Made by a program: the position numbers and the translations under genes
The notes under the pieces: generated by a model
Database searches by the model: none
The model's input: the letters and a program-made list of their open reading frames with translations, nothing else
Told to the model about the DNA's origin: nothing
Shown: positions 12,777 to 17,452 of the stretch, piece by piece
How positions within the stretch are numbered: position 1 is the first letter of the stretch
Layout of the letters: every line of letters begins with the position of its first letter
Source of the DNA: Escherichia coli
GTDB lineage: Bacteria > Pseudomonadota > Gammaproteobacteria > Enterobacterales > Enterobacteriaceae
Strand: one strand, 5' to 3'
Assembly: GCF_003334385.1 (NCBI RefSeq)
Contig: NZ_QOWN01000044.1
Length of the DNA stretch: 37,124 nt

Positions 12777-15452
12777 TTACTTCAACATATTACGAATGAC
12801 ATAATGCAAAATGCCGTCGTTCTGGTAGTAGGTCAACTCCGTCGCGGTGTCGATACGACAACGGCAGGGTACGACTTCCTGGCTACCATCCGCGCGCGTA
12901 AGCGTCACCGGAACCGTCGCGCCGGGTTGTAGGTTTTGCAGATCGCCAATATCAATCTTCTCTTCCCCGGTTAGCCCTAACGTTTTACGCGTTACGCCTT
13001 GCGGAAATTCCAGCGGCAGGATGCCCATGCCAATTAAATTCGAACGGTGAATTCGTTCAAACGATTCGGCAATCACCACACGAATACCAAGCAGACGCGG
13101 ACCTTTTGCCGCCCAGTCACGACTGGAGCCTGATCCATACTCTTTCCCGGCAATCACCGCCAGCGGCGTTTGCTCCTGCTTATAGCGCATCGCAGCATCA
13201 TAAATAGAGACTACGTCGCTGTCAGGTAAATGCCGCGTCATCCCCCCTTCAACGCCAGGCACCATTTCATTACGGATGCGAATATTGGCGAAGGTGCCGC
13301 GCATCATCACTTCATGGTTACCACGCCGCGAACCGTAGGAGTTAAAGTCTTTTCGCTCAACACCCCGACCTTGTAGATATCGACCCGCTGGGCTGTCGGG
13401 CTTAATACTGCCCGCCGGAGAGATATGGTCAGTGGTGACTGAATCCCCCAGCATTGCGAGGATCCGCGCACCGTGAATATCTTCCACTGGTGCTGGTGTT
13501 GCCTGCATTTCATCAAAGAAAGGCGATAAGCGAATATAGGTTGAGTCCTCCTGCCAACCGTAGGTATCGGATCGTGTGACGTTAATTCCCTTCCACTCTG
13601 CTGTGCCTTCAAAAACTTCTGCGTACTCTTTGCGGAACATTTCTGTGGAGACTTGTTCTACCGCACGGGCAATTTCTTGTGCCGATGGCCAGATATCTTT
13701 CAGATAAACCGGATCGCCTTTGCGATCATGGCCGATAGGCTCAGAAGCCAGGTTGATATTCATATTTCCCGCCAGCGCATAGGCAACCACCAGCGGCGGC
13801 GAGGCCAGCCAGTTAGTTTTAACCAGCGGATGGATACGGCCTTCAAAGTTACGGTTGCCGGACAGCACCGCACCGACGGTTAAATCGCCTTTTTTGATTG
13901 CCGTTTCGATAGGATCGGGCAGCGGCCCAGAGTTACCAATACAGGTGGTACAACCGTATCCCACAAGGTTAAACCCCAGTTCGTCGAGATACGGTGTCAG
14001 TTTCGCTTTTGCCAGATAATCAGAAACGACTTTCGAACCCGGTGCCAGCGACGCTTTGACCCATGGTTGCCGCTTGAGGCCCAGAGTTACGGCTTTTTTC
14101 GCCAGCAAGCCTGCGGCCATCAGCACACTTGGGTTAGAGGTGTTGGTGCACGAGGTTATCGCAGCAATGACCACAGCGCCATCAGGTAACTGATACTGAT
14201 GTCCGTTCATAACATAATCGACCGGCTGGCGATCTTTATGCGTGGCATTCACTTCCAGTTCGTTACTGGCGGCAAATGCTTTTGGTACATCGGGCAGTGC
14301 AACGCGATCCTGTGGGCGTTTAGGCCCTGCCAGGCTCGCTTCAACGTCATTCATATCCAGTTCTAACGTACTGGTAAAAATTGGTTCATCGCCCGGGTTA
14401 CGCCACATGCCCTGCGCTTTGGCATATTTTTCGACCAACTCGACCTGATCTTCGCTGCGCCCGCTTAAACGCATGTAATCGAGGGTTACAGCATCGATTG
14501 GGAAGAAGCCACAGGTGGCACCATATTCTGGCGACATATTGGCAATGGTGGCGCGATCCGCCAACGGTAGTGAATCCAGACCATCACCATAAAATTCGAC
14601 GAATTTCCCCACCACGCCATGTTTGCGCAGCATTTGGGTAACAGTGAGAACCAGGTCTGTGGCGGTAATACCTTCACGTAATTTTCCGGTAAGTTTGAAG
14701 CCCACTACATCCGGGATAAGCATGGAAACCGGCTGGCCTAACATTGCGGCTTCTGCTTCGATCCCACCAACGCCCCACCCCAGCACGCCAAGGCCGTTGA
14801 TCATGGTGGTGTGCGAGTCAGTACCAACGAGTGTATCCGGATAAGCAATCCATTCACCGTCCTGCAATTCACTCCACACTGCTTTGCCGAGATATTCGAG
14901 GTTAACCTGATGGCAAATGCCTGTGCCTGGCGGCACGACGCTAAACCGACTGAACGCTTGCTTTCCCCATTTCAGGAACACATAACGTTCGTGGTTGCGC
15001 TCCATTTCCAGGCGTACGTTTTCTTCAAATGCCTCATCATCACCAAAACGATCGACGGTCACCGAGTGGTCAATGACCAGGTCGACCGGTGAGAGCGGGT
15101 TAACCTTTGCAGTATCGCCGCCGAGGCGTTTAACCGCTTCGCGCATTGCCGCCAGATCAACAACGGCAGGTACGCCGGTAAAGTCCTGCATCAGCACCCT
15201 TGCCGGGCGGTAGGCAATTTCACGGTCAGCATGGGCATTTTTCAGCCATCCTGCCAGCGCGTGGATATCCTCTTCGGTAACCGAGTTACCATCCTGCCAG
15301 CGCAGCAGGTTTTCGAGCAAAACTTTGAGTGACTTGGGTAGACGGGTGATATCGCCCAGTGATTTAGCAGCAAGCGGCAGGCTGTAGTAGTGGTAAGTTT
15401 TATCTTTGGCCTGCAACGTGTCCTTACTGGCTTCTCGTAGGGTTGACGACAT
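12777..15452 (-). CDS. acnA: Aconitate hydratase A
   Basis: 891 aa; aconitase family with the conserved Fe-S cluster cysteine ligands. Length and sequence match AcnA as I remember it. Confidence 0.96.
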
Positions 15453-15615
15453 AGCTCCTCCTTAATGACAGGGTTGCGAAGCCCTGATTCTCTTCAGGGT
15501 GAATATTAAAGATAACACAAACATCGCGTAACGATTTGATAACAACCCAAATTGATAAAAGAGGAGAAACCTTGTGGCAAAGCAAATGACAACCCCGCCG
15601 CAGCGGGGTCAAGGA

Positions 15616-15696
15616 TCAGTGAGTAATGATCCAGAGGAGTTCGGCCCAGAAGAGCATCGACAGAGAAAACGCGCCCATCCAGGACCAATATTTCAT
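15616..15696 (-). CDS. Candidate small hydrophobic protein upstream of acnA (26 aa, MKYWSWMGAFSLSMLFWAELLWIITH)
   Basis: ATG-initiated 26-codon ORF on the acnA strand in the acnA leader region. Predicted single transmembrane helix. Below the 60-aa track cutoff; may be a real small protein or a chance ORF. Confidence 0.3.
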   Translation of the reverse strand: MKYWSWMGAFSLSMLFWAELLWIITH

Positions 15697-15824
15697 ATTT
15701 GTGTTGATCATAGGCTACACCCTTAACGGTTATTATTTTGTGTTGAGATAACTCAAGCTGTTATTGCTGCGGTGTATTAAAAGCCCTTTAATTCATTAAA
15801 AATGGGTAATAAGAATGATGATAA

Positions 15825-15992
15825 TTATTGTTTCGGCTGATCATCTTCAGCAAACAGTTCTATAAAGGCTTGCTGCTGCGATGTTAGTTGCCAGTCGTCT
15901 GGAATAACGACGGAACATTCCCGTTTCGTTTCTGTTTCATTGTCACTATGCTGGCATAATGGTGACGACTCCAGTTGCTCCTGACCGACCAT
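15825..15992 (-). CDS. yciX: Small protein YciX (55 aa)
   Basis: ATG at 15992 gives MVGQEQLESSPLCQHSDNETETKRECSVVIPDDWQ..., 55 aa. The start overlaps the stop of the upstream small ORF (TAACTATG arrangement). The ORF-track start at 16013 is a TTG 7 codons upstream. Confidence 0.6.
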   Translation of the reverse strand: MVGQEQLESSPLCQHSDNETETKRECSVVIPDDWQLTSQQQAFIELFAEDDQPKQ

Positions 15993-15994
15993 AG

Positions 15995-16135
15995 TTATCC
16001 CCACACTTTCCAAATCAGCAGTGCGACAACCACCCAGAAAAGTGCAGAACCAAGAAAAACCGCCAGCCAGGCTTTACGTTTTAATTCAGGATCGCGGCGG
16101 GGTTCCTGATTTCCAGAAGGCATTGCTAACCTCAT
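15995..16135 (-). CDS. ymiA: Small membrane protein YmiA (46 aa)
   Basis: ATG-initiated 46-aa ORF (MRLAMPSGNQEPRRDPELKRKAWLAVFLGSALFWVVVALLIWKVWG) with one predicted transmembrane helix. Its stop lies 2 nt upstream of the yciX ATG, suggesting translational coupling. Confidence 0.55.
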   Translation of the reverse strand: MRLAMPSGNQEPRRDPELKRKAWLAVFLGSALFWVVVALLIWKVWG

Positions 16136-16408
16136 ATAATCGCCATCACTTATCAGCAAGACGTTGAACGATTGGTGTAATTAATCATACGATGAGACAA
16201 ATCCTAAAGAAACTTTAGTCAAAAATCCAGCGAATTTACGAATCGTCTCCAGTGAATAATTCAATCTTTTGACCTGAAATAGATATTTGAAAACTGGAGT
16301 TTGCGAGGCGGGTAATTAGACACTACTTTACAGGTAATTTACCCTATAAATATGAGGGATAAAAATATTGTGCACGGTATAGAAATAAGTAACAAAAGAG
16401 AATATATT

Positions 16409-16436
16409 CCGGCACCTTCGCTACATAAAAGGTGCC
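16409..16436 (-). terminator. Putative terminator hairpin downstream of cysB
   Basis: CGGCACCTT-loop-AAGGTGCCG inverted repeat, 18 nt past the cysB stop. The T-run on the minus strand is modest. Confidence 0.4.
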
Positions 16437-16453
16437 GAAAATAACGCAAGAAA

Positions 16454-17452
<999 letters not shown>

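Follow-up and report, generated by a model that had tools for sequence, protein, structure and literature searches.

The ymiA-yciX-ymiC small-protein genes between cysB and acnA of Escherichia coli: start codons, the STnc180 segment and a terminator-deletion allele

Introduction

MgrB, MgtS and PmrR are PhoQ/PhoP-induced small membrane proteins, and YmiA and YmiC of Escherichia coli, two single-helix proteins of at most 50 aa that came out of the same low-Mg2+ screen, resemble them in this respect (PMC11429745), although no sequence similarity connects YmiA or YmiC with any of the three and, in contrast to them, neither a partner protein nor a phenotype is known for YmiC, and for YmiA only a lag upon overexpression. 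Induction of YmiA and of YmiC by low Mg2+ depends on PhoQ, and their genes have been described as part of an operon, ymiA-yciX-ymiC (PMC11429745). The sequence and coordinates of these genes in E. coli K-12 MG1655 are the same, without any difference, as those in the stretch of E. coli DNA analyzed here, which comprises 37,124 nt of contig NZ_QOWN01000044.1 and is referred to as “the window” throughout.

Adjacent small ORFs within one operon whose stop and start codons overlap or nearly touch, as in ymiA-yciX, are also found in mgtS-mgtT and yriA-yriB (PMC11429745), an arrangement that, by analogy, would imply coupled translation, with the difference that ymiA and yciX do not overlap and are 2 nt apart. 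On the side of acnA, the closest described system is mdtU-mdtJI, which shares with ymiC-acnA the layout of a small ORF that precedes a larger gene of the same strand and a mapped 3′ end within 200 nt downstream (PMC7815308). For mdtU-mdtJI, premature termination dependent on the upstream ORF (uORF) has been shown, whereas ymiC-acnA is a candidate in which an acnA promoter lies between the two genes and in which, unlike in the comparison case, the product of the small ORF is a conserved membrane protein. Lastly, the Rfam model RF02079 (STnc180) is filed as a non-coding sRNA, whereas the segment that it matches at this locus includes a 31-aa gene, conserved and translated, together with its terminator; the window matches the whole model, and the internal helices of the model find no covariation support in the loci compared here.

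The central facts about this locus are already known: the genes are annotated, YmiA and YmiC have been detected and localised, and their PhoQ-dependent induction by low Mg2+ has been published. The present analysis therefore carries little weight as a discovery, and its added value lies in corrections and side observations on the start codons, STnc180 and a terminator allele.

Results

Identity of the locus and evidence that the frames are genes

A segment of 3,001 nt around the locus showed 0 mismatches (100% identity) against E. coli K-12 MG1655, and the K-12 annotation could be mapped exactly onto the window, where it places the following genes:

16135..15995, minus strand: ymiA (b4522), 46 aa
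15992..15825, minus strand: yciX (b4523), 55 aa
15711..15616, minus strand: ymiC (b4741), 31 aa

The original prediction had listed frames of 46, 55 and 26 aa at this place, and reading them directly on the minus strand showed all of its coordinates to be correct, just as the K-12 annotation bears out the names ymiA and yciX that it had given to the first two. The cassette was matched in 5,422 of 5,426 complete E. coli genomes, with ymiA, yciX and ymiC all annotated in the rows sampled.

Comparisons between species were made on the cysB-acnA region of 14 Enterobacteriaceae, a sparse species sample with neither Klebsiella nor Salmonella in the initial collection, which was then extended by Salmonella, E. 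fergusonii, C. koseri and Franconibacter via contigs encoding homologues. The mere presence of such ORFs is at the level of chance, as the counts of ATG-initiated ORFs in the cysB-acnA spacer of 1 kb, with minimum lengths set at 26, 31, 46 or 55 aa, were equalled or exceeded in 17-53% of shuffles; it is because of conservation, purifying selection and published protein detection that ymiA, yciX and ymiC are regarded here as real genes. The conservation across Enterobacteriaceae that had been proposed as a check was indeed found, with the frames kept across genera under purifying selection and the control frames giving values of about 1 or more.

YmiA and the position of its start codon

The ymiA frame extends from the ATG at 16135 to the TAA at 15997..15995 (46 aa, MRLAMPSG...VWG), and its product (pI 10.9) contains one strongly hydrophobic 19-mer (residues 24-42, Kyte-Doolittle 2.54), in agreement with the single transmembrane helix predicted for this frame earlier. 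This helix is C-terminal and preceded by a basic segment, a KRKAW...FW...WG motif is kept in 14 species, and the pN/pS across 14 species is 0.255. YmiA belongs to the NCBIfam family NF000536, scoring 96.8 bits (cut-off 30) over residues 5-46 only, and its homologues carry Pfam PF22868. The protein has been detected by PRM targeted mass spectrometry (PMC12529367), while a YmiA-GFP fusion was found to be membrane-localised and a lag was the only phenotype of overexpression (PMC11429745). The product would be a single-pass inner-membrane protein whose basic N-terminus is cytoplasmic.

The family match beginning at residue 5 coincides with a second in-frame start:

16121..16133, minus strand: alternative ymiA start Met5, consisting of ATG 16123..16121 and the Shine-Dalgarno (SD) sequence GAGG 16133..16130, the only ymiA start found in all species examined

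The Met5 ATG and an AGG 7 nt upstream of it are invariant in 14/14 species, compared with 9/14 for the annotated Met1 ATG, and the predicted anti-SD duplex is also stronger for Met5 (-6.3 kcal/mol) than for Met1 (-4.6 kcal/mol). In E. coli itself, the annotated start is supported by a TetRP (tetracycline ribosome profiling) start site and by the peptide LAMPSGNQEPR (PMC4909307). A further in-frame ATG (MISD...), 33 nt upstream of Met5, is present in 12/14 species and replaced by CTG in E. coli. The start of ymiA thus varies between genera, which accounts for public annotations giving 42, 46, 53 or 54 aa, and it is ambiguous between Met1 and Met5. The N-terminus of the protein was likewise seen to differ between genera.

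The ymiA/yciX junction and YciX

Directly after ymiA follows yciX, and the two meet as shown below:

15990..16003, minus strand: ymiA/yciX junction TGGGGA-TAA-CT-ATG, read directly, with the SD GGGGA (16002..15998) lying within the last ymiA codons

The spacer between the ymiA stop and the yciX start is CT (15994-15993), i.e., exactly 2 nt, and of the 11 species bearing yciX, 10 have a spacer of 1-3 nt and Mangrovibacter one of 8 nt. The SD-like GGGG serving yciX is, in the yciX-bearing species, always provided by the terminal Trp-Gly codons of ymiA, with an anti-SD duplex of -5.5 kcal/mol for yciX. A stop and a start within a few nt of each other, together with an SD inside the upstream ORF, is the geometry of termination-reinitiation, so that the 2-nt gap and the coupled translation put forward for this pair in the original prediction both appear well supported, as far as sequence can speak for coupling; that translation of yciX mechanistically depends on that of ymiA is a step we infer. 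Set against such coupling are the SD that yciX has of its own, which makes independent initiation possible, and the 8-nt spacer of Mangrovibacter.

The yciX frame itself (ATG 15992 to the stop at 15827..15825, 55 aa) is 100% identical to that of K-12, and its product, with a pI of 4.05 and 12 D+E versus 3 K+R, is an acidic soluble protein, which fits the earlier designation of the frame (K-12 b4523) as an acidic ORF. Conservation is concentrated in the C-terminal motif IPxxWxLTxQQQAFIxxFxEDDxKKQ, with a pN/pS of 0.33 over the last 26 codons versus 0.75 over the first 15, the N-terminal half being variable and drifting almost freely. The orthologues identified by synteny have ORFs of 49-59 aa with the C-terminal motif in common, and AlphaFold2 predicts a disordered N-terminus and a single confident helix at residues 38-51. 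No relatives of YciX were found in Pfam, NCBIfam or the PDB, neither NCBIfam nor Pfam holds a family HMM for it, and a word-indexed protein search returned matches only in Escherichia and Shigella, those of other genera having been found by synteny alone. A study in Salmonella has assigned a “yciX” to the Cpx regulon.

YmiC starts 15 nt upstream of the frame predicted earlier

The third frame of the original prediction (ATG 15696 to TGA 15618..15616) proved to be real and hydrophobic, whereas its length of 26 aa did not hold, as it is the downstream portion, in the same frame, of a longer ORF of 31 aa, the annotated ymiC, that begins 15 nt upstream at 15711 and is preceded by an SD:

15718..15722, minus strand: ymiC Shine-Dalgarno sequence GGGUG, 6 nt upstream of the ATG at 15711, its GGT being invariant in the alignment

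The anti-SD duplex amounts to -5.9 kcal/mol for Met1 (15711) versus +0.6 kcal/mol, i.e., no SD, for Met6 (15696), and Met1 is conserved in 11/11 species, whereas the position of Met6 is occupied by Met in 3/11. As only Met1 possesses an SD and is conserved, 15711 is taken as the true start of ymiC.

YmiC is assigned to the NCBIfam family NF041484 (66.3 bits, cut-off 42) and to the Pfam family PF23694, and 10 YmiC clusters were retrieved in a search of representative proteins; the trait of this family, about 30-33 aa with a KYWSW...LFW...W core, is reflected in the conservation of the core in 11 species. For the core, the pN/pS is 0.247, compared with 0.94 and 1.77 when these nucleotides are read in the two alternative frames. 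SPA tagging has detected the 31-aa YmiC at 1335572-1335667, which matches the ymiC coordinates (VanOrsdel 2018, PMC6001520), and the suggestion that the third ORF might encode a small membrane protein is corroborated by the membrane localisation of a YmiC-GFP fusion; neither deletion nor overexpression of ymiC gave a phenotype (PMC11429745). Promoter activity directly upstream of ymiC was negligible (Vellappan et al., PMC11429745), and a second study places ymiC on the yciX 3′ UTR and finds that it lacks a separate promoter.

The region upstream of ymiA

Phylogenetic footprinting over 10 species outlined three conserved non-coding blocks upstream of ymiA:

16191..16289, minus strand: conserved non-coding blocks TTTAGGATTTGTCTCATC (16191-16208), CTGGATTTTT (16221-16230) and CAAATATCTATTTCAGGTCAAAAGATTGAATTAT (16256-16289)

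This stretch is presumed to be the promoter/regulatory region of the operon, and the region upstream of ymiA has been reported to drive PhoQ-dependent reporter activity at low Mg2+ (Vellappan et al., PMC11429745). Within 15300-16600, a scan for sigma-70 consensus promoters gave no hit for the gene strand. Likewise, no canonical PhoP box was found using KGTTTA-N5-KGTTTA with up to 3 mismatches, the hits near ymiA all having 3 mismatches; in these hits, the conserved part corresponds to the spacer and not to the half-sites, and the scan (130 hits in the window versus ~85 expected) is uninformative. Given that there is no canonical PhoP box, the dependence on PhoQ may be indirect.

The STnc180 segment and a conserved box ahead of ymiC

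The covariance model of STnc180 covers ymiC together with its surroundings, and the spacer between yciX and ymiC contains a conserved box:

15582..15784, minus strand: match to Rfam RF02079 (STnc180, “enterobacterial sRNA”), spanning the ymiC 5′ leader, coding sequence and terminator
15762..15776, minus strand: conserved non-coding box TACACCGCAGCAATA in the yciX-ymiC spacer, its TACAC being invariant in 10/10 sequences

The match is full length (model positions 1-208) and, at 198 bits, far exceeds the gathering score of 50; of the ymiC-bearing related loci scanned, 9/10 gave a match, compared with none of the loci lacking ymiC. The alignment displays 3-nt periodicity with third-position wobble across the core. 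As a whole, the segment folds somewhat better than its shuffles (z = -2.2), and RNAalifold on ten STnc180 regions yielded neither a consensus structure (-1.06 kcal/mol) nor compensatory pairs, a result that is a fair test for helices in the coding sequence and a weak negative for the terminator and the 5′ hairpin, since MAFFT probably misaligns variable hairpins. Northern signals for STnc180 ranged from 500 to 2000 nt, and the authors concluded that they represented processed mRNA (Sittka 2008, PMC2515195). A non-coding sRNA in which conservation lies in the structure and not in the codons was thus not what was found here, in view of the codon periodicity, the pN/pS of 0.247 and the lack of a consensus structure in these regions. 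Considering the co-occurrence with ymiC, the wobble, the missing consensus structure, the long Northern bands and the absence of a promoter, STnc180 is best understood as the 3′ portion of the operon mRNA that carries ymiC.

The ACACC of TACACCGCAGCAATA is complementary to the GGUGU of the ymiC SD, and a helix between the two would close off a variable internal hairpin at 15743-15757. Minimum-free-energy folding gave this pairing, with high probability, in 6/11 species, the E. fergusonii score being invalid because it was taken from a second TACAC copy instead of the conserved box; the folds of Salmonella, Ent. Bisph1, Ent. BIGb0383 and Ent. Ag1 did not contain it, the helix being broken in the first three of these. 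Both arms are invariant and show no covariation, and the predicted SD-sequestering ACACC:GGUGU helix is only a lead.

The ymiC terminator and its 14-nt deletion allele

The ymiA-yciX-ymiC unit has its 3′ end at a terminator directly behind the ymiC stop, and this terminator is affected by a deletion:

15590..15611, minus strand: intrinsic-terminator hairpin GACCCCGCUGCGGCGGGGUU (terminator scan), 5 nt past the ymiC stop and followed by an interrupted U-tract
15587..15600, minus strand: 14-nt segment CGGCGGGGTTGTCA, deleted in a common E. coli allele (alignment with strain FDAARGOS_1302)

The hairpin is GC-rich with a folding energy of -18 kcal/mol (z = -2.7), and a hairpin was also present 3′ of the ymiC stop in the 9 other loci inspected for one, most genera having strong terminators with good U-tracts and a stop-to-hairpin distance that ranges between genera from 5 to ~40 nt. 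E. albertii has kept the terminator with a compensatory C:G to U:A change.

In the deletion allele, loss of CGGCGGGGTTGTCA removes the 3′ arm of the terminator, and the corresponding junction was found in 1,143 of 5,426 complete E. coli genomes (21%). No hairpin is left in this allele, which folds at only -1.2 kcal/mol.

Position of ymiC relative to the acnA transcripts

The p2 start of acnA has been mapped at -50 (PMC2760140). This corresponds to approximately position 15502 of the window, downstream of both ymiC and its terminator, so ymiC is not in the main acnA leader, and the placement of the third ORF in the acnA upstream leader by the original prediction does not stand as far as this main leader is concerned. 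A distal, sigma-S-dependent start, P1, was reportedly described by Cunningham et al. in 1997 some 407 nt upstream of acnA, a position that would presumably fall inside yciX. As for the idea of ymiC as a regulatory uORF, Adams et al. (2021) have already listed ymiC-acnA among their candidate uORF pairs, with the mapped 3′ end at 1335835, inside the acnA start region, which is not the ymiC terminator and is not Rho-dependent (PMC7815308). No conserved geometry of uORF stop and terminator was found among the loci compared, as the distance between them varies and RNAalifold gave no conserved alternative pairing.

Distribution of the cassette

The cassette occurs in Escherichia, Salmonella, Citrobacter, Enterobacter and their relatives, and is absent in Rahnella, Serratia, Acerihabitans and Providencia, where the gap between cysB and acnA is about 140-310 nt, for which reason it looks like an Enterobacteriaceae-specific insertion. 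Within this range, Salmonella and Superficieibacter have no yciX, two Citrobacter species and Mangrovibacter have no ymiC, and E. albertii has lost ymiA, yciX and ymiC altogether while keeping the upstream GGATTTGTCTCATC box and the terminator; species without ymiC retain the acnA-proximal promoter region. As yciX or ymiC can be missing, the three genes are separable and do not constitute an obligate unit.

Discussion

The three ORFs are very probably the known K-12 genes ymiA, yciX and ymiC, forming one small-protein operon between cysB and acnA in Enterobacteriaceae. Transcription of this operon would originate upstream of ymiA upon PhoQ-dependent induction at low Mg2+, as published reporter and RNA-seq data suggest, and would end at the terminator 5 nt past the ymiC stop. 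Ribosomes finishing at the ymiA stop may resume initiation 2 nt further on, at the ATG of yciX, making use of the GGGGA in the last ymiA codons; the synthesis of YciX would thereby be tied to that of YmiA at a constant ratio, and YciX probably acts together with YmiA. YmiC, in turn, is a 31-aa membrane protein whose translation is independent of this and uses an SD of its own, 113 nt downstream of yciX, the gene being carried on the ~200-nt 3′ segment listed by Rfam as the sRNA STnc180.

That these short ORFs are chance open frames within an intergenic spacer could be argued from their numbers, as ORFs of such lengths are not in excess over shuffled sequence in a spacer of 1 kb; this reading is, however, already refuted by conservation and detection, i.e., by selection across genera that acts on these frames and is absent in the control frames, by matches to curated family models and by the experimental detection of YmiA and YmiC proteins, and retains next to no probability. 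It is also very improbable that 15582-15784 constitutes a genuine Hfq-binding regulatory sRNA, possibly a dual-function one, to which the ymiC frame would be secondary. The full-length 198-bit Rfam match, the recovery of STnc180 cDNAs in a Salmonella Hfq co-immunoprecipitation study (PMC2515195), the invariant non-coding TACAC box with a structured 5′ domain and the folding z of -2.2 would all fit such an sRNA, yet Sittka et al. observed only bands of 500-2000 nt that they called processed mRNA (PMC2515195), neither promoter activity nor a transcription start lies directly upstream, the core exhibits clear codon periodicity and a low pN/pS, RNAalifold revealed no conserved structure or compensatory pairs, and the family tracks the ymiC ORF (9/10 ymiC-bearing loci scanned versus 0 among those without it). 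What Rfam files as the “sRNA” STnc180 is in essence the 3′ segment of an mRNA that codes for YmiC.

A regulatory uORF role for ymiC, being an already published candidate, is not new, and the case for it is comparatively weak. In its strict form, it would hold that ymiC is mainly a regulatory uORF, a ribosome at the UGA 5 nt before the stem blocking the hairpin so that transcripts from the ymiA promoter or P1 read into acnA, which, if true, would make the expression of aconitase A responsive to translation of ymiC. Speaking for it are the location of ymiC on the same strand as acnA, with its stop codon 163 nt upstream of the acnA ATG, the 5 nt separating stop codon and stem in both E. coli and Salmonella with a predicted lower stem that includes the UGA, the interrupted U-tract in E. 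coli, the 21% of E. coli genomes without the 3′ arm of the hairpin, which implies that read-through is tolerated, and the listing of the pair by Adams et al. (PMC7815308). These points are, however, opposed by a peptide that is under purifying selection (pN/pS 0.247) and membrane-localised, which points to a functional product, by the spread of stop-to-hairpin distances from 5 to ~40 nt among genera whose terminators are mostly strong and have good U-tracts, and by the mapped p2 start (-50) downstream of the terminator. The distal P1 start that is said to lie ~407 nt upstream also counts in its favour. On the other side, ymiC, located on the yciX 3′ UTR, lacks a promoter of its own, Citrobacter, Mangrovibacter and E. 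albertii loci without ymiC still keep a conserved acnA-proximal region, the 3′ end at 1335835 is not at the ymiC terminator and not Rho-dependent (PMC7815308), and deletion or overexpression of ymiC had no phenotype (PMC11429745). Overall, a mainly regulatory ymiC seems quite unlikely, and a membrane protein encoded as the last gene of the operon is the reading preferred here.

Conclusions

Read-through into acnA is plausible in the 14-nt-deletion allele, which, in this respect, is a natural, ready-made test case both for such read-through and for the published ymiC-acnA idea. A broader proposal may be formulated around it, in which the ymiC terminator is leaky and evolvable: acnA would receive transcription driven by PhoQ/PhoP or from P1, as modulated by ribosomes that finish ymiC 5 nt ahead of the stem, and the 14-nt deletion would fuse the operon to acnA at the level of transcription. 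While this proposal is rather unlikely to be right, if it were true, the deletion lineages, i.e., about 21% of E. coli genomes, would have a Mg2+-responsive aconitase A.

STnc180 and the leader and terminator of ymiC

15582-15784, minus strand: match to the Rfam family STnc180 (RF02079; 198 bits), inside which lie the whole ymiC coding sequence and its terminator
15743-15776, minus strand: region with the invariant non-coding box TACAC(C)ACAGCAATA, approximately 50 nt 5' of the ymiC ATG
15587-15600, minus strand (971-990 in locus L087): 14-nt deletion in the ymiC terminator

Codon-like conservation is seen across the segment matched by STnc180, a family filed as "sRNA" in Rfam, which looks like a coding mRNA segment that has been catalogued as a non-coding RNA. 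Within its leader portion, folding predictions for 6 of 11 species pair the ACACC of the invariant box with GGUGU in the ymiC Shine-Dalgarno (SD) sequence (15717-15722, minus strand), enclosing a variable internal hairpin, and such pairing may serve to mask the ymiC SD or, alternatively, the box may mark an RNA processing site; as both arms are invariant, covariation is uninformative on the ACACC:GGUGU pairing.

At the other end of the segment, 1,143 of the 5,426 complete E. coli genomes (~21%) carry the 14-nt deletion, by which the terminator loses its 3' arm; the resulting allele is without the hairpin and has a folding energy of -1.2 kcal/mol, versus -18 kcal/mol for the intact terminator. 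A 63-aa YmiC variant (protein P0060) was also encountered on the background of this deletion allele; its stop codon is gone, and its reading frame extends past the lost stop through the acnA promoter region.

The ymiA start and its upstream region

16121-16159, minus strand: ymiA N-terminal region, start codons compared between species
16191-16289, minus strand: strong phylogenetic footprints 5' of ymiA, from a comparison of 10 species

Judging by the start codons of 14 species (loci L002-L010, L078 and L082-L085), the ymiA N-terminus is evolutionarily unstable: the annotated E. coli Met1 is an ATG in 9 of them, an in-frame ATG (MISD...) located 33 nt 5' of Met5 is present in 12 and is a CTG in E. 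coli, and the sole invariant start is Met5 with its AGG SD. In public records YmiA is annotated at lengths between 42 and 54 aa.

Further upstream, TTAGGATT is unchanged in all 10 species and is accompanied by the footprints CTGG(A/C)TTTT and CAAWTATTTATTTCNGGTCAAAAGATTGAAT, none of which matches the canonical PhoP box or a sigma-70 promoter; "yciX" has been counted in the Cpx regulon by a Salmonella paper. An IS1 insertion lies within the stretch covered by the cysB-ymiA-acnA query match in at least 12 complete E. coli genomes, and in the one locus inspected (E. coli YPE10, L086 1388-2085) it occupies the cysB-ymiA intergenic region, with the operon downstream.

The acnA-proximal hairpin

15469-15486, both strands: palindromic hairpin CAGGGCTTCGCAACCCTG, a short way 5' of the acnA SD

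This hairpin is kept in E. fergusonii, Salmonella and E. albertii, and is immediately followed by an RNA 3' end reported at K-12 position 1335835 (window 15448), 4 nt inside acnA (Adams et al. 2021, PMC7815308).

Modularity and loss of the cassette

E. albertii NBRC 107761 (L003 3730-4015) is devoid of ymiA, yciX and ymiC, its cysB-acnA spacer being ~260 nt, and retains a GGATTTGTCTCATC box resembling the one 5' of ymiA. It has also preserved the terminator hairpin, in which a compensatory change replaces C:G by U:A and whose U-tract is better. Elsewhere, yciX is absent from Salmonella (L082 1662-1848) and Superficieibacter (L009), and ymiC from two Citrobacter species (L002, L005) and Mangrovibacter (L078), the last of which nevertheless retains the TACACACAGCAATA box; ymiA and the acnA-proximal promoter region are retained in all five. 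The ymiA/yciX/ymiC cassette is modular.
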